A DNA stretch of 64,000 bases from Promethearchaeota archaeon (GCA_019058295.1 JAHPZI010000023.1:12766-76765), one strand, 5' to 3'. Counted from the stretch's first letter, positions 18,062-27,025 are shown. The notes: generated by a model from the letters alone, not told the origin. Program-made: numbers and translations.

Positions 18062-19387
18062 ATGAGTAAATCAATAGTTTCTATTGGTAAGTATGAAAAA
18101 CCGTTTGAGTCTGTCAAGAAAGTTATTGAACTTGCGAACGGACTTGAAAATTTACCATCTAAAGCCAAAGTATTTATTAAACCTAATATCGTATATTGGA
18201 ACCGACATTGCACTATTCCAAAATGGGGTGTTCTGACAACTTCTCGAGTAATGGAAGATGTCGTAGCTTTGCTTAAAGAAAAAGGGATTGAGGACATAAT
18301 CATTGGCGAAGGGATTGTCAAAGAAGACCCGAAAGATAAAGAAACAGCCGCTGATGCTTGGGAAAAACTTGGATATAATAAACTTATTGATAAATATGGT
18401 GTTAAGGTATATGATTTATTTGAAAGACCTTATGAGAAGATTGATCTAAACACAGGATTTAAGACAAATTTTAGTTCTGATGCTCTTAATGCAGATTTTC
18501 TAATTGATATTCCTACTCTTAAGACGCATGCTCAAGCCATGGTTAGTTTGGGCCTCAAAAATTTGAAGGGTTTAATTAGTGTTGCATCTCGAAAGAAATT
18601 TCATAATGCTGACCCCGTAAAAAATCTTGATCATAATGTTGCTCAACTCGCAAATAAAATACCTCCTTCTTTAACAATTATAGATGGGATTTATACTCTT
18701 GAAAGAGGTCCCGCCATTGATGGAAAAAGTCATAGAAAAAATATTCTTGTTGCATCATCAGATATATTAAGTGCTGATATGGTTGGAGCAAAATTGTTAG
18801 GTGTCGACCCTTCAACCGTCCCATCTTTAATCCAAGCAGCAAAAGATCGAAATAGACCTACAGATTTATCCGATGTTGAAGTAGTTGGAGAAAAGATAGA
18901 AAATCTGGCGTCTCATCATGAGTGGGATTTTAAATATAATGAAGCAGATGATTTACCCCTTCCTTTCCAGAGAGCGGGTATAGAAGGTATAAAATATCAT
19001 AAATATGACTCAACCATGTGTACATACTGCAGTGGCATGAACGGACTGATTTTAATAGCTATTAAAATGGCTTATAGGAAGTCTAAACCTTTTGATAAAG
19101 TCGAAGTGTTATCTGGTAAAGTTATGACACCCACACCTGGAAATAATAAAACTATTCTATTTGGGCAATGTCAATATAATTTGAATAAAGATCATCCAGA
19201 GATTAAAGAACTGATTTCAATTCCAGGATGCCCCCCTTCAAGGGAGGCTATACAAGAGGCTCTTCAAAAAATTGGATTAAAAGTTCCTAAATCTTTTTGG
19301 GAGAATTTAGATAAAGCCCCAGGATGGTTAATGCAGAAATTTAAAGGGAAGCCAGAATTCGAGGAATCTTTTTTTCAAATTCAATAA
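18062..19387 (+). CDS. DUF362 domain protein with C-terminal Cys cluster
   Basis: IKPN, IGEG, LKTH, SLGLKNLKG, IDGI..E.GP; C-terminal CTYC, GQC, GCPP. Confidence 0.85.
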   Translation: MSKSIVSIGKYEKPFESVKKVIELANGLENLPSKAKVFIKPNIVYWNRHCTIPKWGVLTTSRVMEDVVALLKEKGIEDIIIGEGIVKEDPKDKETAADAWEKLGYNKLIDKYGVKVYDLFERPYEKIDLNTGFKTNFSSDALNADFLIDIPTLKTHAQAMVSLGLKNLKGLISVASRKKFHNADPVKNLDHNVAQLANKIPPSLTIIDGIYTLERGPAIDGKSHRKNILVASSDILSADMVGAKLLGVDPSTVPSLIQAAKDRNRPTDLSDVEVVGEKIENLASHHEWDFKYNEADDLPLPFQRAGIEGIKYHKYDSTMCTYCSGMNGLILIAIKMAYRKSKPFDKVEVLSGKVMTPTPGNNKTILFGQCQYNLNKDHPEIKELISIPGCPPSREAIQEALQKIGLKVPKSFWENLDKAPGWLMQKFKGKPEFEESFFQIQ

Positions 19388-19436
19388 TTTTAAAATTCTG
19401 TATATAACATTTTATTTTTAATCTATTTACTTATTC

Positions 19437-20366
19437 TTAAATTTGCGATTTTTCGCTATCTTTCTTTAATATTAAAATTTCATTTAATCTGTCGGTATAA
19501 ATTTTAACTCCCTCGTTATCATTAATATCATAGCAAACGTCTATAATTCTAGAGTACTTATTTATTGCTTTTTGAAAATTCTTTTTATCAAGTTCTTCTT
19601 GAGCTTCCTTTAGCAAATCTTGTATTAATTTTTTTGATTTTTGAATATGATCAACGCTTTTCTTCTCAATTGTTTTTACATCTGCATGAAATATCTCTAT
19701 TAATATAGATTCTATCTCTATAATTAATTCATAAATTCTTTTAGGATTATTAGAATCCCAATTTGAATAGGTAATAGCTTTTTCCCAAAATTTATCTATA
19801 TCTCCATCAAATAATTTAATGATATCTAAAGGAATGTTTAATTTAGGTTTCTCAGGATAATCAGTAAAATCTAACCCTATAATAAAATGTTCATCCAAGG
19901 TAATAGATAAGTAAACTAAAGCATTAGTAATTGAATCTATAAATTCCGTTTGAAAATAATACATTAAATCCTTGGCTTCGCGAGCAATTAGAACTTCTTT
20001 ATCAATAAGTTGCACAGTTTCCTCCTTTACTTCAACTACCTCTTTCTCAACTGGAGGGGCTTCCTCAATGATTTCAATTTCAGGGGGTTCCTCTTTCTTA
20101 ATTGGAGGTGCTTCCTTAACTGGGGCTGGTTCTTTGACAACTCTTTCTCTCGGTTTTATTATAGTTTTTTCTTTAACTTCAGCTATTTGTTGCAATATCT
20201 CTCTTAATTCGTTTTCCAAGGTTAATTTATTAGATTTAAATTCATCAAGAGGTATCGCTCCTTGTTCCAATTGTTTTTTCAAATTTTGAATGGTGATGAC
20301 AATTTCTTTAACTCTTGATTTTAATTGTTGTATATTTTTTAATATTTCCTCTTCACTCAATCTCAC
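19437..20366 (-). CDS. Multidomain protein: helical hairpin, Pro/Glu-rich linker, UBC/UEV-like domain, MIT/TPR-like helices
   Basis: 309-aa ORF. Its GTG start overlaps the upstream gene's TGA (GTGA at 20366-20363). E2-fold hallmarks LIAREAKDL, DYPEKPKL and NWDSNNPKRIYELIIEI. Domain calls are inferred. Confidence 0.6.
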   Translation of the reverse strand: MRLSEEEILKNIQQLKSRVKEIVITIQNLKKQLEQGAIPLDEFKSNKLTLENELREILQQIAEVKEKTIIKPRERVVKEPAPVKEAPPIKKEEPPEIEIIEEAPPVEKEVVEVKEETVQLIDKEVLIAREAKDLMYYFQTEFIDSITNALVYLSITLDEHFIIGLDFTDYPEKPKLNIPLDIIKLFDGDIDKFWEKAITYSNWDSNNPKRIYELIIEIESILIEIFHADVKTIEKKSVDHIQKSKKLIQDLLKEAQEELDKKNFQKAINKYSRIIDVCYDINDNEGVKIYTDRLNEILILKKDSEKSQI

Positions 20367-21409
20367 TTTTCACCTGAATTAATTTTTTTTTTAACCATTT
20401 TTTCAAATCCTATTGCATTAGAAAAACTAGGATCTTCAACCTTAATAATTCTACTTAAATCTATATCACCAACTAAATTATTTTCTAATATTAAAATCTC
20501 AATTTCAGTCCAAAAAATATCCAAAGCTTCACCTGCTAAAATAAAATATTCGATTTCTGCATCTAATGGTAAATTTCTTATCAAATCAATTAAAATATTG
20601 ACAATTTCAGTTGAAATTTGACGGATATAATATTTTTTTATTTCACTAATATCGTATGATTTTCCAGAGATTTGAACTTGTTCTTTATTGTCCCTTATGC
20701 TCTGTAAGATTGAATGAGGATTAACAATGTATCCTGTTTGTTCCTCTAGGGCAAGAGAGATTTTATTAGATAAAACAAATAATGAAGCATTTGTTAAATT
20801 TCGGGAGGCATTTCGAATCAATTTTCCATCAAAGATAATTAAGATTTCTGTTAATAGATCTAAAGAAATTACCACAGCATCTAATGCGGTATCTAACTCA
20901 GCACTTGAAATCACGTCATAATAAGTACCATAAGATTCAGGCATAACTAAAACCTGCTTAATATTAATTTTTTTAGTTATTATGTCCTTTGTTGCTTCAT
21001 TTTTAATTTTAATCTCAAATTCGCCTTTTAGCTTAGCACTTAATTCCTTCATCTTTTCTATAGTTGTAGAAACTGGAACGCCTATTCCAAGAATAAATTC
21101 CTCCTCATCATTCTCGGAAATTAATGGCAAGACTGATTTAATCAACAAGAAAATTTCATCAGTCTTTTTAAGATGTGCTTGATCTAAGAGATAATGTTTA
21201 ATTTCGCTCTGAGTTCGCGCTAATTCACCTATATAATATTCCTTATCGGTTTCTATGAGAATAAGATTATTTTCCCAACTTTTATCTACCGTTAAATCTC
21301 CCCATCCTGTAGGATCACTAGAACCAATTACATTAGGAATCGATAATTTGATAGATTCGCTAGAGAATTTAATATTCCCTCCTATATCAATTCCTATACC
21401 TAAAATAAT
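20363..21409 (-). CDS. ParM/StbA-like actin-fold protein, degenerate (putative pseudo-ATPase); probable ATT start
   Basis: The frame stays open 87 codons upstream of the tracked start (21148), reading IILGIGIDIGGNIKF...GW....DKSWENNL...YYIGELARTQSE, collinear with the neighbouring actin. It is bounded by an in-frame TGA at 21412-21410, and the extension has no ATG/GTG/TTG. Confidence 0.85.
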   Translation of the reverse strand: MILGIGIDIGGNIKFSSESIKLSIPNVIGSSDPTGWGDLTVDKSWENNLILIETDKEYYIGELARTQSEIKHYLLDQAHLKKTDEIFLLIKSVLPLISENDEEEFILGIGVPVSTTIEKMKELSAKLKGEFEIKIKNEATKDIITKKINIKQVLVMPESYGTYYDVISSAELDTALDAVVISLDLLTEILIIFDGKLIRNASRNLTNASLFVLSNKISLALEEQTGYIVNPHSILQSIRDNKEQVQISGKSYDISEIKKYYIRQISTEIVNILIDLIRNLPLDAEIEYFILAGEALDIFWTEIEILILENNLVGDIDLSRIIKVEDPSFSNAIGFEKMVKKKINSGEK

Positions 21410-21601
21410 TCAAGCACCAATTTTTTACGATATTTCAAGCGAATATTCAATAATTATAAATAGTAATATTTGTATAAATAACAAATGTATGATAAAAATA
21501 AAAAATATAATATTAAAAGTAATTAATGTAATTATAAATATAAATTTGAAAAAAAATTCAAAAAAACTAACTATTATCTAAAATTTATAAGGTGAGAAAT
21601 A
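21410..21601. promoter_or_regulatory. Putative bidirectional promoter between the two actin genes
   Basis: Very AT-rich spacer. TAATTATAAATA occurs at 21451-21462 and 21529-21540 (TATA-like on both strands). AAGGTGAG precedes ATG 21602; GGTG precedes ATT 21409 on the minus strand. Confidence 0.5.
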
Positions 21602-22639
21602 ATGGAAGATTCTTCAGAAAGATTATATATCGGTTGCGACTTAGGTACGAGTACAATAAAGCTCTCGTGTGGAGACACAAAATTCTTAATCCCATCTTTA
21701 ATTGGTGAACCAAATCCCGGCTGGTCTGGTGCGTCCTTTGATAAAAGTCTTGAGAATAACTTAGTCATAACTGAAGGGCGAGATTCTTATTATATTGGAG
21801 AATTAGCTCGAATGCAATCGGAAGTAAAACGTGCTCTTGCGTCTGATGGACAGATGAAATCTGCCGAAGAGACTTATATCGCATTAAAGGCAGCATTAGG
21901 GTTATTCATCGATAATGATGGTCAAGATGTTATAGTAGCAACGGGTGTACCAGTGGCTACTAGTATGGGAGTAATGAAAAATTTGAGTAAAATGTTAAAA
22001 GGAAATCTTGAGATAAATGTAAAAAACGACGCCACTGGCAAAACTAAACGACTTAATGTAAACATCGAAAAATGTTTGGTATTGCCAGAGCCTTATGGTA
22101 CTTACTATTCTACATTAAAAGAAAAAGGAGAAGAAACAGCTGTCGACACGGTACTAGTTGATATAGGACATGGAAGTACCGATATTTTGACAATGTATCA
22201 AGGTCGCCCTATGCGAACTGCATCCGGCTCTATGCGTGAAGCGACAGATACACTCACAAACCGGATGGCAAGTGCTCTTCAGGAAAAAACAAATCAAATC
22301 GTTAAACCTTTTGATTTAATGACTATAATTAGACAGCAAAAAGAAAGTGTATTGATTGGAGGGCAAACTTATTCTATTAAGAGCATCAGAGATTTTTATG
22401 CAAAACAAATTGCAAAAGTGATGGTTGACGAAGTCATGAGATTGATAACTACTTTACCTCCGGATGCTTTCGTAGAATATTATATAATTTGTGGTGGTGG
22501 AGCCTATACATTTGGAGAAGCCATTAAAGAGGCTATTATTGAGGGTCATTTAGTTACTACTGACGAAGCTGTTATCATTCCAGAAGATCCTGTTATAAGC
22601 AATGCTAGAGGATTCGAGCTTATAGCCCAATCGCAATAA
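21602..22639 (+). CDS. ParM/StbA-family actin-like ATPase
   Basis: All five actin-fold motifs: phosphate-1 GCDLGTSTIK, connect-1 VLPEPYGT, phosphate-2 VDIGHGSTD, adenosine ICGGGA, connect-2 PVISNARGF. Confidence 0.92.
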   Translation: MEDSSERLYIGCDLGTSTIKLSCGDTKFLIPSLIGEPNPGWSGASFDKSLENNLVITEGRDSYYIGELARMQSEVKRALASDGQMKSAEETYIALKAALGLFIDNDGQDVIVATGVPVATSMGVMKNLSKMLKGNLEINVKNDATGKTKRLNVNIEKCLVLPEPYGTYYSTLKEKGEETAVDTVLVDIGHGSTDILTMYQGRPMRTASGSMREATDTLTNRMASALQEKTNQIVKPFDLMTIIRQQKESVLIGGQTYSIKSIRDFYAKQIAKVMVDEVMRLITTLPPDAFVEYYIICGGGAYTFGEAIKEAIIEGHLVTTDEAVIIPEDPVISNARGFELIAQSQ

Positions 22640-22808
22640 TAAAATATTCATAAATCCAAATTTTTTACTTTTCCTTTAAAATTTTCTTAATATAGACAAA
22701 AAATAAATAACTTAATTTATACATTTAATTTAAGAGAATTATAATAAACTTCAACAAATAACAATTTTTATATAGAAAATATTTATCATACTCTCTTGGA
22801 AGATTACT

Positions 22809-24059
22809 GTGGGAGAAAAATCACCTCAAGATAATGTTAATAAGCTTGAAGACACCGTAAAAAAAGCATTGGATGGTTTTTCCGGAACAGACTCTGGGAC
22901 GGATACCGACCTTTCGAGTTTAGAAGGTGTAGTACAAAATGCATTAACTGAATTAACCGATTTAGAAAATAACTTATTAAATGTTATCTCCCCATCAGCA
23001 GGTAGTCAAGAAGACAAGGATAGCAATTACTTATTAGCAGTCAGACGATTACAAAACGCAATGAAAGTAGCGCTTTTAGATGGTGCGAGGAAAAAAGATT
23101 TAAAAACATTCGAAGAGGGTTTTAATTTCTATAATAATGCCCTTGAAATAATAACTGCTACAGGGATTCAATCTGAAATAGATCAAGTAATGAGTGAATT
23201 TGCCCAAACACTTATAAAGATAATAACCAAACCTGAAAATATTAAAAATCCTGAGTTTAAACCTTTTGCGTTTAAAGCTTGTAAAAATTTAGCGGAAATT
23301 TATGATTATTTTAAAAACTTTGAAATTAGTGGCAAATTTCATAATCGCGCCGGAGGTTTAATCTCTGATAATCCTCTCATCGCAGAATTAGAGTATTTTC
23401 AATCAGTTATTGACTATATTCTCCTGAACGATCTAAACAAAGCAAACGAACAGACTTCAAAGCTAAAATTTAAACATATTGTAATTTTCGCAAATGACCT
23501 AACAAACGCAATTAACGAATCTAAACCAGAACTTATTGAGCAAATTAAAACTAAAATCGAAGTCTTAGCAGCTCAAAAGGGATTTAAACCTAAAAATATT
23601 CTTTTTTTGCTAAATTTGATTAAAGATCGAATTAAAGATTCCAGCGGAAAAGTAACTGCGCAAACAATAAAAGCACCATCCGATGTTGTACCGTTATCTA
23701 AAGAAAAAATAGAAGCTATCAAAGATTCCTTGACACAAGGAATTCAATCACTTCAAGAAGCCTATCCTGAGCTCGAAAATCCAGCGGCTGCTCAGATTGA
23801 TACCAGTGAAATAATTTCTGAATTAAAAGAAGTTATCTCAACCGAAATTAGTAAAGAAGTAAAATCCCTTTCAAGCGACATCGTATCCAAAATCCTGAGC
23901 AATCTCCCCCGAGGTGGAATGGCATCTGGTCCCAGATATGCTGGAACTATTTCCGACGCAGATAGGCCTGATATTGAAATTGTTGAAGGTGGCCCAAGAG
24001 AAAAACCTCAAAGACCTAAGTTAGATGATATGCTAGATTCTGTAATCGTTAGCGAATAA
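22809..24059 (+). CDS. Hypothetical helical protein (alpha-SNAP/TPR-like core, disordered tail with terminal amphipathic motif)
   Basis: 416-aa ORF, GTG start; TPR-like helices in the centre; Gly/Pro-rich tail ending RPKLDDMLDSVIVSE. Confidence 0.65.
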   Translation: MGEKSPQDNVNKLEDTVKKALDGFSGTDSGTDTDLSSLEGVVQNALTELTDLENNLLNVISPSAGSQEDKDSNYLLAVRRLQNAMKVALLDGARKKDLKTFEEGFNFYNNALEIITATGIQSEIDQVMSEFAQTLIKIITKPENIKNPEFKPFAFKACKNLAEIYDYFKNFEISGKFHNRAGGLISDNPLIAELEYFQSVIDYILLNDLNKANEQTSKLKFKHIVIFANDLTNAINESKPELIEQIKTKIEVLAAQKGFKPKNILFLLNLIKDRIKDSSGKVTAQTIKAPSDVVPLSKEKIEAIKDSLTQGIQSLQEAYPELENPAAAQIDTSEIISELKEVISTEISKEVKSLSSDIVSKILSNLPRGGMASGPRYAGTISDADRPDIEIVEGGPREKPQRPKLDDMLDSVIVSE

Positions 24060-24088
24060 TTGAATTTTTCTTTTAGAAATTTGTAGAT

Positions 24089-26194
24089 TTAACTCGTTTT
24101 GAAATGTTGTTGCGGTTGAAAGATAGATAAATTTAGATCTTCAAATCTATTAGAATCACAAATTTCAGTAAACCATGTATAATCAGTATTAGGTTTCATT
24201 TGGTTACGAGAATCATTTATCCACGCGGAATTCTTATTTAATCCATAACTAGGCATAAGAAACGATAGGAAAAACATATTGTCGTAGAAATATAGATTGT
24301 GAAAATCAGTGTAATTAGAATTTCCTTCAGAAACCCAATTTAAATAGTATCCGTTTGCATTAGAAAGCTTATCTAGCGTAGACCATTTGGTATAGAAGGG
24401 CTTTTTTATATCTTCTGCTACTTCTCCAGTAGGAAAATATGAGATTTTATCCTTGTTTGCTAAATAGGCATTTAAGAGGTTATTATGAGATTTAAGGATT
24501 CTCGACTTTGATCGCTTCTCTCCATTTCGATAATTTACTGTAATGTTATATTCTCCATCTTCTAAGAATCCATTTCTATCAAATCCGACATATCTAATTT
24601 GATCCATATTCAACCTATCAACAACATATCCATTTCCATTCTTAAAATCGAAAGGCTCATTAAAGACCTTAAATTCATAACTATTTGGTCCTTGGACGAT
24701 AATATTGTCAATAATATTTGTAAATTTTTCTCCAAATAAGCCACGAAACATTGCTTCAAATCTAGTTTGCTTTTTTGGCATATCGCTGCTATTTTCACCA
24801 TTATCAAAATATGTTTGGCTTACAATTATATTATCTAGTGTTGGTATTGTCTCAGTTTTAACATCTTCATTAAAAAATGACTCTTCAAATTCATTAAATC
24901 GGTGCCAATATCTCATTCCATGTAAAAGTGGAATTTTCTCAAGGTTAGCAAGATATTCAGGATTTACATTTATTCCAGCTTTATGAAGAGCTTTTGTTAT
25001 GTTTTCAAGTTTTGGAGGGCAGCCTTTTATAGCTATAAGTTCTTTAATGTCTGGATTATTTCTATGTTTATTAAACATACATTGACCTAACAAAATTGTC
25101 TTTTTTTTCCCCGTAGGATTCATTCTTTTTCCTGTAAGAACTTCTATATCATCCCAAGGGTTTCCAACCCATGCAAAATTAATTGCTTCGAGTACTCTGC
25201 TAGTAAGCATAGAGCAATATGTACATAAGGAATTATCATAATTCCAATAATATATCCCCTTTACTCCTCGGTGTTTAAAAACTCTTGGCATTGAACCATC
25301 TTCAGTATAGGGGAATTTATATTCATGAAAATCTTGAACTTTCTCAATTTTTCTCCCTATAATCTCAACATCAGAAAAATCTATCGGTCTATTATTGGAT
25401 TCCGCATAATATTTAAGGTATCTGACGTCTGAGGGATCATAACCAAGAATTTTTGCTCCTACCTTATCAGCTGAAAATATATCAGAAGAAGCTATAATGA
25501 GATCTTTTCTTCTCATTTTTCCATCATAATTAGGGCCTCTTTCATTGGTATAAATTCCATCTATTACTGCGGCACTAGGAGGAAGTTTATTAGAAAGATG
25601 GGAAATAAAAAATTCAAGATCTTTTTCTGTGTCTGCGGTATGGCATTTTTTTCTTGAATTCACATCGATTAATCCCTTTAAATTTTTTAGAGCCAAACTT
25701 ACTTTGGTTTGAGCATGGGTCTTAAGAACTGGTATACTAACGATAAAATCGCTATATAAGGCATCTGTATTAAAATTTAAATCAATCCCATCACCTAAAT
25801 CGACATTCTCAAAAGACCTCTCAAAAACGTTGATTACCCTTATGCCGTGCCTTCTTATAAATATATTATAACCCAAAGTTTCAAACGCATGACGAGGAGT
25901 TTCAAAGTCTTTAGGATTCATTACGATAATACCCTCACCAATCGTAATATCAGAAATTCCTCGTTCTTTTAACGCAATTATTGTATCCTCAACAACACGA
26001 GAAGTAGTCACTACACCATATTTTGGATAAAAAGGTTCACATGACCAATAAACAATATTAGGTTTTAAAAATACTTTCTCATTTCCAGATAAATTTTCAA
26101 ATGCATTTGAAAGGTTGATAGCTTTACCTACAGATTTAATTTTGTTTCTATAACGTACAATTGCAACACGATGCTTATCCATGGTAAACCACAC
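24089..26194 (-). CDS. DUF362 domain protein with Cys cluster and ~250-aa C-terminal extension
   Basis: LKPN, IGEG, LKTH, LKNLKG, CTYC, GQC, GCPP; paralog of 18062..19387. Start is likely ATG at 26182. Confidence 0.85.
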   Translation of the reverse strand: MWFTMDKHRVAIVRYRNKIKSVGKAINLSNAFENLSGNEKVFLKPNIVYWSCEPFYPKYGVVTTSRVVEDTIIALKERGISDITIGEGIIVMNPKDFETPRHAFETLGYNIFIRRHGIRVINVFERSFENVDLGDGIDLNFNTDALYSDFIVSIPVLKTHAQTKVSLALKNLKGLIDVNSRKKCHTADTEKDLEFFISHLSNKLPPSAAVIDGIYTNERGPNYDGKMRRKDLIIASSDIFSADKVGAKILGYDPSDVRYLKYYAESNNRPIDFSDVEIIGRKIEKVQDFHEYKFPYTEDGSMPRVFKHRGVKGIYYWNYDNSLCTYCSMLTSRVLEAINFAWVGNPWDDIEVLTGKRMNPTGKKKTILLGQCMFNKHRNNPDIKELIAIKGCPPKLENITKALHKAGINVNPEYLANLEKIPLLHGMRYWHRFNEFEESFFNEDVKTETIPTLDNIIVSQTYFDNGENSSDMPKKQTRFEAMFRGLFGEKFTNIIDNIIVQGPNSYEFKVFNEPFDFKNGNGYVVDRLNMDQIRYVGFDRNGFLEDGEYNITVNYRNGEKRSKSRILKSHNNLLNAYLANKDKISYFPTGEVAEDIKKPFYTKWSTLDKLSNANGYYLNWVSEGNSNYTDFHNLYFYDNMFFLSFLMPSYGLNKNSAWINDSRNQMKPNTDYTWFTEICDSNRFEDLNLSIFQPQQHFKTS

Positions 26195-26245
26195 TACTTA
26201 AAAATTAATCGTTTAAATAGTTTTCAATTTAAAATTAATAATAAA

Positions 26246-27025
26246 TTACTTAAAACCTTGACAAAAAGCATAAACATTATCCCCTATAACATCGTGATTG
26301 TAGCCTCCTTCTAAAATAGCATATCGACGACCATTACAAAGCTTCTCAGAATATTCTTTCATTAAATTACCTAATTCTGTGTAATCTTCTGGATATAAAA
26401 GACTGCCCCAGTCCTGGATTCCTTGGTCGAAACCGGCGCTTGCTGCAAAAATATCAATATCCTCCAGATTTTCCATATATTCCCTTACTTCTTTTATATA
26501 TTTTTTATTAGATCCTGAATCGGGATTAAGTATTTTTACCTTAAAATCGTCAGCTCTATGGGTAAGTATATTAATATTGCCATCTCCAGTATGGAGATCG
26601 AAATCTAAAATAAATGCGGATTTGATTTTCTTCTCAGAATATAGCTTTAATAAGCTAATACTCATATTATTAAAATAACAAAACCCCCAACAGGAATCTG
26701 CTGATGCATGATGACCCGGAGGCCGAATAACTGCAAATGAGGGGGTTCCCTTATAAGCCTCCTCAGCAGCTAAGATTGCACCTCCTGCTGCTAACGATGC
26801 TAATTCATATAACAAAGATATATCCTTTATATATTGATAGTGCCTTTCTCCATGGGCTCGTAAAATATCTTCCTCTGTAGCAGGCTTTGGAATGATAATT
26901 TCAAATTGGTCTTTATCTTTATTATCTAAAATTTTTTTCATTATGCCATCTAATCGTCCTACTGAGGCAGCAGGATCCATTGCGTATTCAGAATTATAAT
27001 ATTTCTCATGAAACACAATTTTCAT
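26246..27025 (-). CDS. Histone deacetylase family (Zn-dependent amidohydrolase)
   Basis: RPPGHHA, GFCYFNN, DFDLHTGDG, SAGFD and LEGGY motifs intact. Confidence 0.92.
   Translation of the reverse strand: MKIVFHEKYYNSEYAMDPAASVGRLDGIMKKILDNKDKDQFEIIIPKPATEEDILRAHGERHYQYIKDISLLYELASLAAGGAILAAEEAYKGTPSFAVIRPPGHHASADSCWGFCYFNNMSISLLKLYSEKKIKSAFILDFDLHTGDGNINILTHRADDFKVKILNPDSGSNKKYIKEVREYMENLEDIDIFAASAGFDQGIQDWGSLLYPEDYTELGNLMKEYSEKLCNGRRYAILEGGYNHDVIGDNVYAFCQGFK

Follow-up and report, generated by a model that had tools for sequence, protein, structure and literature searches.

A candidate accessory filament module of Asgard archaea: an intact ParM-like actin, a nucleotide-site-degenerate paralog and their partner proteins

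The subject of this analysis is a four-gene module encoding two actin-like proteins and two putative partners, located in a 64,000-nucleotide stretch of DNA (hereafter the window; positions are counted from its first letter) from a Promethearchaeota archaeon (GCA_019058295.1, JAHPZI010000023.1:12766-76765). The window is part of contig C23, from an Asgard (Promethearchaeota) assembly of 3.2 Mb and ~31% GC. As listed in Table 1, the module consists of an intact actin-like gene (INT), a degenerate paralog (DEG) and their partner genes (P3 beside INT and P2 beside DEG). The ORF (open reading frame) listing recovered all four genes at the coordinates proposed in an initial annotation of this DNA.

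Table 1. Positions of the module genes, their sub-features and the bordering genes in the window.
Feature	Position	Strand	Description
P2	19437..20366	-	ORF, 309 aa
DEG	20363..21409	-	pseudo-ATPase paralog, 348 aa plus stop
Divergent promoter spacer	21410..21601		192 bp, AT-rich
INT	21602..22639	+	ParM/ALP-fold ATPase, 345 aa, intact motifs
P3	22809..24059	+	ORF, 416 aa
P3 C-terminal tail	24003..24056	+	residues 399-416, ...RPKLDDMLDSVIVSE; predicted INT-docking peptide
DUF362-701 gene	24089..26194	-	701-aa DUF362-domain protein, Pfam DUF362 4.4e-34
Presence/absence cassette	19399..26245		6,847 bp; P2, DEG, INT, P3, DUF362-701 gene
Flanking genes, convergent	DUF362 18062-19387; HDAC-like 26246-27025		border the cassette

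The divergent actin-like pair

Analysis of the INT protein revealed matches above the cut-off to the Pfam families ALP_N (PF17989; 2.2e-17, 64.1 bits, cut-off 26.3) and MreB-like_C (PF21522; 2.4e-11, 44.7 bits, cut-off 27.8), and all of its nucleotide motifs are kept (phosphate-1 DLGTSTIK, phosphate-2 DIGHGSTD, adenosine GGGA). The best sequence match in the PDB was Dh-cParM1, a chromosomal ParM of Desulfitobacterium (6e-9), followed by the pCBH ParM and MamK; no solved chain named Thermoplasma or Ta0583 was found in this search at E up to 1. Among NCBIfam models, INT remained below the cut-offs both of PRTRC_D (TIGR03739), its best match there (59.4 vs 214.8 bits), and of the ParM equivalog (NF010498; 53.7 vs 417 bits). 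PRTRC systems may offer a precedent for cassettes that combine a ParM with E1/E2 proteins. An assignment as Csn2, suggested by PADLOC, was rejected, the match being marginal (in the range E 1e-3 to 4e-4) and confined to helical stretches. Searching a protein database returned >170 INT homologs of 50-86% identity, with records named Promethearchaeota, Helarchaeota and Heimdallarchaeota, which agrees with an Asgard origin of the window. Identity amounts to 65-86% across Loki/Hel lineages and exceeds 50% across Asgard classes. INT is an ortholog of a protein that is conserved between these classes.

DEG also matches ALP_N above the cut-off (8.2e-14, 52.5 bits) and MreB-like_C below it (17.5 bits, cut-off 27.8). 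The view that INT and DEG are paralogs of the ParM/ALP (actin-like protein) fold is borne out by their alignment (40% identity over 324 residues, E 3e-80), in which every sequence block quoted in the initial annotation is present.

The nucleotide-binding motifs were compared in an alignment of 56 family members. Phosphate-1 DLGTSTIK is kept in INT, its orthologs and all single-copy Asgard homologs, and a phosphate-2 of the DxGxG(S/T)T type together with a GGG adenosine motif is kept in the non-DEG members, the exception being a divergent extra copy (L012). The 11 DEG orthologs have in common (i) a phosphate-1 one residue shorter (DIG-GxIKF vs DLGTSTIK), (ii) the loss of phosphate-2 (S/TLDL-LTE vs DIGHGSTD), with a one-residue deletion and no Asp-x-Gly-x-Gly, and (iii) the loss of the adenosine motif (GEA vs GGGA). 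The earlier observation that one paralog has all ATPase motifs and the other does not thus describes a real and lineage-wide loss in DEG.

No ATG, GTG or TTG is available to DEG before position 21148, which corresponds to codon 88 of the homologous region, and a start at this position would delete the conserved N-terminus. That N-terminus begins at an ATT (21409) which immediately follows an in-frame TGA and has GGTG 5 nt ahead of it; it is therefore probable that DEG starts at this ATT, with GGTG as its Shine-Dalgarno sequence. Only with this start does the 192-bp spacer described between the head-to-head paralogs hold. Comparison with locus L030 revealed that an ancestral ATG-GGT-GAT-TGG has become ATT-GGT-GCT-TGA in the lineage of the window (21398-21412), and the same ATT/TGA state is found in G138, an independent congeneric assembly. 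In L028 and L029, DEG is likewise without a canonical start ahead of the conserved N-terminus. The canonical start is thus missing in three lineages; in the window and G138, an ATT or ATC is left right after the stop, behind a GGTG Shine-Dalgarno sequence, and gene callers have for this reason truncated DEG to 227-297 aa. The noncanonical start may be a device for low expression.

The spacer carries TTATAAAT-type boxes and a GGTG Shine-Dalgarno sequence on each side, and is nearly identical in G138. A search of its 192 bp for a parC-like repeat array yielded only two-copy AT-rich chance matches. At the other end of DEG, its TGA stop overlaps the GTG start of P2, as the initial annotation had read from the sequence GTGA, and in most loci the DEG-P2 junction is a stop/start overlap or a gap of <=10 nt. 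An antisense ORF of 108 aa (21255-21581, +), opposite the DEG N-terminus and the spacer, recurs in G138 only through near-identical DNA and is probably spurious.

The loss of the ancestral ATG and the in-frame TGA at ancestral codon 4 in the DEG genes of the window and G138 could be taken to mean that DEG is a decaying duplicate, P2 and P3 are unrelated neighbours and a functional module does not exist; the split of P3 into two frames in L030 would fit the same view. The 348 codons of DEG are open in 10 of 10 loci, however, and the sequences carrying the degenerate motifs retain 56-96% overall identity. Between the window and G138, dN/dS is ~0.30 for DEG and 0.29 for P2, values based on few substitutions. 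The gene order is moreover kept across deep divergences, and the linkage of each actin with its partner survives a split of the module (see below). Decay, already contradicted by these conservation data, is extremely improbable. Because the degenerate motifs are conserved across 11 orthologs, DEG is, as far as sequence evidence goes, a pseudo-ATPase maintained under selection, as opposed to a gene in decay. When 1.8 billion cluster representatives were searched exhaustively, only seven proteins matched DEG at <1e-30, so the DEG type is lineage-restricted.

The partner proteins P3 and P2

The predicted model of P3 (pLDDT, the per-residue confidence, 69.8; core >85) is an all-helical, TPR-like structure composed of an N-terminal helix, a solenoid (residues ~36-277), two long helices, a disordered stretch and a C-terminal tail. 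No Pfam or NCBIfam family was matched, a SNAP family being absent from Pfam. In structural searches with VIA, the top fold matches were Sec17/alpha-SNAP (Z 15.0, 206 residues, root-mean-square deviation (rmsd) 4.0) and gamma-SNAP (Z 14.0), followed by a proteasome subunit (Z 13.5, rmsd 12), HAP40 (Z 11.5) and generic TPR proteins (<=10.6). Foldseek pointed to the same families (E ~0.01), and a PDB profile search with the P3 alignment returned designed helical/TPR proteins only. The designation of P3 as SNAP/TPR-like in the initial annotation therefore stands as the best available fold match, applying at the level of the predicted fold only (~10% identity). ZorA, proposed for P3 by PADLOC, was rejected as a marginal match (E in the 1e-3 to 4e-4 range) over a helical stretch. 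No AAA+ or SNARE-like neighbour was present in any P3 locus examined, and neither family scans nor the model nor VIA gave a DNA-binding fold for P3.

The most conserved part of P3 comprises the last ~18 residues, RPKLDDMLDS[IV]IV[SC]E, whose columns vary little or not at all across 27 sequences; all 10 P3 loci have the tail. In L030 (2265-3560), P3 occupies two adjacent frames (residues 1-212 and 214-416; assembly GCA_030605085), which represent either a pseudogene or an assembly error.

Complexes of INT with P3 residues 352-416 were predicted in three runs together with control pairs and scored by ipSAE, a confidence measure for predicted interfaces. The median ipSAE was 0.74, compared to 0.29 for the best control; the runs agreed in >=90% of contacts and the partner pLDDT was >=67. 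In the calibration of the tool, 58 of 80 solved complexes attained this mark, as did 2 of 110 mismatched pairs. The predicted interface joins P3 399-416 to INT residues 122-133, 157-182, 200-202, 288-290 and 341-345, a surface which we take, in the light of the ParM-ParR peptide structure, to be the groove between subdomains IA and IIA. The invariant tail of P3 is accordingly predicted to dock in this groove of INT as ParR does on ParM, and the interaction between INT and a partner suggested at the outset finds support, at the level of modelling, in P3.

The P2 model (pLDDT 65.6) consists of a helical hairpin (residues 5-67), a disordered Pro/Glu linker (69-112), an alpha-beta4-alpha domain (113-225) and a three-helix bundle (230-308). 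In the middle domain, a helix (H113-133) is followed by four strands (137-177) and further helices; it contains an invariant YPxxP motif (Y170, P171, P174), but neither Cys nor an HPN motif. Profile comparison (hhalign) related it to repeat 2 of Asgard UQ_con+RWD+RING proteins (probability 98.6, E 8.5e-16); its alignments with the UQ_con and RWD repeats were in register and not significant (E 0.12 and 0.15). The nearest Foldseek/Atlas neighbours were E2, UFC1, RWD and BRE, all of them weak. The middle domain of P2 is a probable non-catalytic UBC/RWD-like fold.

The proteins containing these repeats, ~560 aa long and found in genome family f1 (L032:1986-3674, -; L033:1773-3428, +; L034:1612-3348, +), carry four tandem YP-motif UBC/RWD-like repeats, of which repeat 1 is Pfam UQ_con and repeat 4 RWD/UBC_like, and end in a Cys-rich, RING-like C-terminus.

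At family level, P2 had no informative match in Pfam, NCBIfam or PADLOC scans. UQ_con, UEV, RWD and UBC_like gave none for P2 itself, nor were they among the 25 families most matched by 23 homologs at E up to 1. In the own genome of the window, a UEV family search found nothing, and one with Vps23_core (PF09454) picked another locus and not P2. A PDB profile search with the P2 alignment returned only designed helical/TPR proteins, and its model shows no DNA-binding fold. The hairpin superposes on the Vps23 C-terminus (Z 10.0, rmsd 1.4 A, 63 aa, 22% identity), in a tie with CdvA and designed hairpins; its comparison by hhalign with the steadiness-box-like region of the same genome gave a probability of 0.15. 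The bundle matched MIT at Pfam E 0.3 and, by VIA, the MIT domains of VPS4B (Z 9.0) and calpain-7 (Z 8.9; range for MIT 8.5-9.0), tied with TPR matches. The VIA search was made with the whole P2 model, so that its list was filled by helical hairpins and bundles and the UBC-like domain was barely probed. UEV, steadiness box and MIT were consequently not accepted as established identities of P2, there being no profile match and the fold scores of the hairpin and the bundle tying with unrelated or designed helical proteins. Of the earlier description of P2 as UEV-like, there remains a UBC/RWD-like domain of alpha-beta4-alpha topology that carries YPxxP and has its homolog among the repeats of the UQ_con+RWD+RING proteins; UEV as such lacks support at the sequence level. 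The ubiquitin/ESCRT link proposed for the partners likewise has no support from sequence and comes down to a resemblance of folds.

A paralogous family, P2-long (410-427 aa, 46% identity between lineages; L023:7861-9120, L028:5000-6292, L003:5345-6604), shares the P2 hairpin and the start of the next domain and differs in its C-terminal half, which belongs to no known family. In L023 and L028, P2-long follows P2; in genome G183, it is also without a canonical start. Comparison showed that P2-long is not the same as the caspase-like neighbour gene described below.

Distribution, phylogeny and mobility of the module

The sample in which the distribution of the module was examined comprised 200 genomes of the phylum in addition to that of the window. 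Of these, 38 have the ParM-like family (39 of 201 with the own genome), which reaches 20/21 genomes in family f5, 5/5 in f17, 6/7 in f20 and 3/3 in f27. Within this sample, the DEG-type paralog and the divergent pair occur only in G138, G183 and the own genome. The layout P3<-INT / DEG->P2 was found in the window, G183, G138 (where the contig is cut), L023, L024, L028, L029 and L030; the synteny check across Asgard genomes thus revealed four-gene co-conservation, as had been expected of a genuine module, in at least eight Loki/Hel-type contigs.

P2 adjoins DEG in 9 of 10 DEG loci, being directly downstream in eight and separated by an insert in Helarchaeota. In the tenth (G183), P2-long replaces P2, and the true P2 ortholog is on another contig. 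P3 is directly downstream of INT in all seven INT loci seen in full, and likewise in Helarchaeota. The helarchaeal module is split on one 130-kb contig, INT->P3 lying ~30 kb from DEG..P2->Peptidase_C14; two pairwise partnerships are therefore supported.

The maximum-likelihood tree shows DEG and INT as monophyletic groups (100/99 support), DEG on a long stem. Together with an intermediate sequence, P0188, DEG is sister to the Loki/Sigyn/Hel branch containing INT, with weak support (68/77). The internal branching orders of DEG and INT mirror each other. The locus of P0188 was examined for a divergent actin partner like that of DEG, and none is present.

The single-copy homologs of family f5 have another neighbourhood of ~nine genes, common to 9 of 10 f5 loci examined. 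P2-like and P3-like genes were not found in it by BLAST, nor was the P3-type tail motif. The neighbouring proteins (~740, 252, 187, 250, 220 and 1010 aa; L006-L009 and L017-L021) were grouped solely by BLAST.

In the congeneric genome G144 (98% complete), the DUF362 and HDAC-like genes that flank the module lie 5 bp apart and the module is absent. This 5-bp gap defines 19399-26245 as a clean 6,847-bp indel. In G183, a genome of another genus, the same empty site was observed on contig C23, and the module is on C17, at a different locus. The module is accessory and dispensable. No target-site duplication or terminal inverted repeat was found at the ends of the cassette, and no tRNA gene between positions 10 and 35 kb of the window. 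The statement that ParR, parC, rep and integrase are lacking was upheld by family scans of the flanks, the repeat search in the spacer and the tRNA scan. Of the proposed chromosomal filament system, this part stood; the module is not a core chromosomal system of the lineage, being a 6.8-kb presence/absence cassette. Short contigs of independent sediment metagenomes bridge the DUF362-P2-DEG and DEG-INT-P3 junctions; no empty-site joint was found among them, the pieces being short and hence uninformative on absence.

Two further explanations bear on these data. The first is a conflict or defence cassette, in which an actin-fold NTPase/pseudo-NTPase would serve as sensor or scaffold for TPR and E2-like proteins, with a caspase-like effector in some lineages. 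The patchy accessory distribution with its clean indel fits such a cassette, and the conflict systems of prokaryotes often contain TPR and E2-like domains. A caspase-like Peptidase_C14 gene (~400 aa; not present in the window) lies directly downstream of P2 in L024 (4666-5883; Lokiarchaeota) and L025 (7782-8987; Helarchaeota) and matches the PADLOC 'caspase'. The helarchaeal insert between DEG and P2 (L025:5954-6753) consists of a nucleotidyltransferase (Polbeta/NTP_transf_2) and small-ORF pair resembling a toxin-antitoxin system. The four core proteins, on the other hand, have no meaningful match in PADLOC, the cassette of the window has no effector-like gene and the caspase-like gene is missing from most loci; INT, with the identities given above, also evolves much more slowly than typical arms-race genes. 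We consider this explanation unlikely.

The second, which we regard as quite unlikely, is that of a mobile-element partition module, remnant or working, of the ParMRC kind: INT would push DNA, P3 or P2 would replace ParR, and the centromere would be an unrecognised one. INT falls in the ParM/ALP clade, in which the proteins that have been characterised serve plasmid segregation; the docking predicted for the P3 tail is like that of ParR, and the 6.8-kb cassette is found in some congeners and missing from others and occupies another locus in G183. No DNA-binding fold is seen in P2 or P3, however, and the spacer has no repeat array; rep, integrase and tRNA are lacking, and the cassette holds five genes only. 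Flanking DUF362, PHP and UbiA genes are common to two contigs, the INT and DEG trees are mirrored, as expected for vertical descent, and in f5 the single-copy homolog is both nearly universal and set in a conserved neighbourhood.

The fifth gene of the cassette, DUF362-701, lies inside the indel and has probably travelled with it as a passenger. In closer relatives (L003, L023, L028), DUF362 genes are repeatedly found beside the module, but not in distant loci. Small GTPase genes of the Arf/Ras/Roc type occur within a few kb of the module at L025:12145-13254 and L031:8737-9333. In the window, the flanks encode radical SAM, FAD oxidase, luciferase-like monooxygenase, DUF362, HDAC-like, methyltransferase and M28 peptidase proteins, in agreement with the metabolic flanks noted initially.

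Proposed function and relation to known systems

The reading that we favour, and to which we give slightly better than an even chance, is that of a lineage-restricted accessory cytomotive-filament module of Loki/Hel-type Asgard archaea; a small remainder of probability belongs to some other explanation. According to this filament reading, the module would go back to an old duplication in which the Asgard ParM-like actin gave rise to both paralogs. INT would be the ATP-dependent polymerising subunit and P3 its adaptor, with a SNAP-like TPR solenoid for protein cargo, a flexible linker and the invariant tail; lodged in the groove of INT, the tail would let P3 mark or regulate one filament end. 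DEG would not bind or hydrolyse ATP normally, but would keep the actin fold and the groove. It would be co-produced with P2 via translational coupling, from a weak ATT start in several lineages, and may act as a sub-stoichiometric cap, nucleator or anchor of the INT polymer. P2, through its hairpin and UBC/RWD-like domain, would tether DEG to another protein assembly. The homology, the conserved loss of motifs, the synteny, the indel and the docking of the tail in silico come from the analysis itself. Polymerisation, the role of DEG, for which nucleation, capping or co-polymerisation had been proposed initially, its contacts with INT and P2 and the identity of the cargo are all points that we infer.

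Several findings weigh against the filament reading. The module is absent from a 98%-complete congener, and in family f1, to which the window belongs, only 2 of 40 genomes carry the ParM-like family; an accessory or conflict function would account for this no less than a cytoskeletal one. Locus L031 has P3<- / DEG->P2 without INT, and in two lineages the gene after P2 is the caspase-like Peptidase_C14. The complex score may reflect a memory, on the part of the model, of ParM-ParR-type structures. Finally, the groove residues are conserved throughout the family, DEG and homologs without P3 included, and the specificity of the P3 tail for INT over DEG is therefore only putative.

A more elaborate version, which we think very unlikely, is a two-ended machine with the SNAP-like adaptor held by its ParR-like tail at one end of the ATP-driven filament, the nucleotide-dead, Arp-like paralog capping or seeding the other, and P2, by way of a steadiness-box-like hairpin, a UBC/UEV-like domain and an MIT-like bundle, linking it to the Asgard ubiquitin/ESCRT network. 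If true, it would be an independent prokaryotic invention of the logic of actin, pseudo-actin and trafficking adaptor.

Work on the Asgard cytoskeleton has centred on lokiactin, actin-related proteins (Arps), profilin, gelsolin and tubulins; a ParM-like actin conserved across Asgard classes is thus an unstudied filament candidate. If the filament reading is true, the module would show the re-targeting of ParM-type filaments from DNA to protein cargo and offer a compact four-protein system for in-vitro reconstitution. As an accessory system, it would be unlikely to account for the core cell biology of Asgard archaea.

INT is an actin-fold ALP, as are the filament proteins of ParMRC (R1 ParM/ParR/parC), the cParMs (Dh-cParM1, PDB 8x1i), Alp7A/R and AlfA/B. 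As in ParMRC, an adaptor gene (P3) lies directly downstream, and its tail is predicted to enter the IA/IIA groove in the manner of ParR. The differences from ParMRC are that (i) P3 is a 416-aa SNAP-like TPR solenoid and not a ribbon-helix-helix DNA binder, and parC repeats are lacking, (ii) a second paralog, dead at the nucleotide site, is divergently encoded with a partner of its own, and (iii) the host is an Asgard archaeon, the contig is chromosomal and INT lies far under the ParM equivalog cut-off. INT resembles the Thermoplasma Ta0583-type actin homolog in matching PF21522 above the cut-off. Ta0583 is an archaeal ALP of the single-gene type and is not known to have partner genes or a dead paralog.

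Eukaryotic actin with its Arps and adaptors, and MamK with MamJ or MamK-like paralogs, follow a similar logic: one actin-fold protein is active and polymerises, a paralog has diverged, and the adaptors are not homologous. Specific homology is lacking, however. DEG is a recent offshoot of the Asgard ParM-like clade and does not derive from lokiactin or the Arps; nucleotide binding is retained in Arp2 and Arp3, while in DEG phosphate-2 and the adenosine motif are lost.

In structure, the P3 core is matched best by the TPR-like solenoids of alpha/gamma-SNAP (Sec17) and HAP40. Unlike SNAPs, P3 has an extra N-terminal helix, two long C-terminal helices and a predicted actin-docking tail, and there is no NSF/SNARE context. 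P2 is like E2/UEV/RWD domains in its alpha-beta4-alpha topology, with YPxxP at the equivalent place; to judge from the sequence, the P2 domain has no catalytic Cys. Its N-terminal hairpin superposes on the C-terminal hairpin of ESCRT-I Vps23, but the domain order is reversed with respect to Vps23 and the hairpin match ties with designed and unrelated hairpins.

A full-text search of a literature collection for Asgard ParM-type actins found no description of the family or the module, which is probably an undescribed variant of ParM-type filament-plus-adaptor systems. Its new features are a maintained pseudo-ATPase actin paralog, an adaptor that does not bind DNA and apparently uses the ParR docking mode, and a protein, P2, that appears to be built from domain types otherwise known in ubiquitin/ESCRT proteins.

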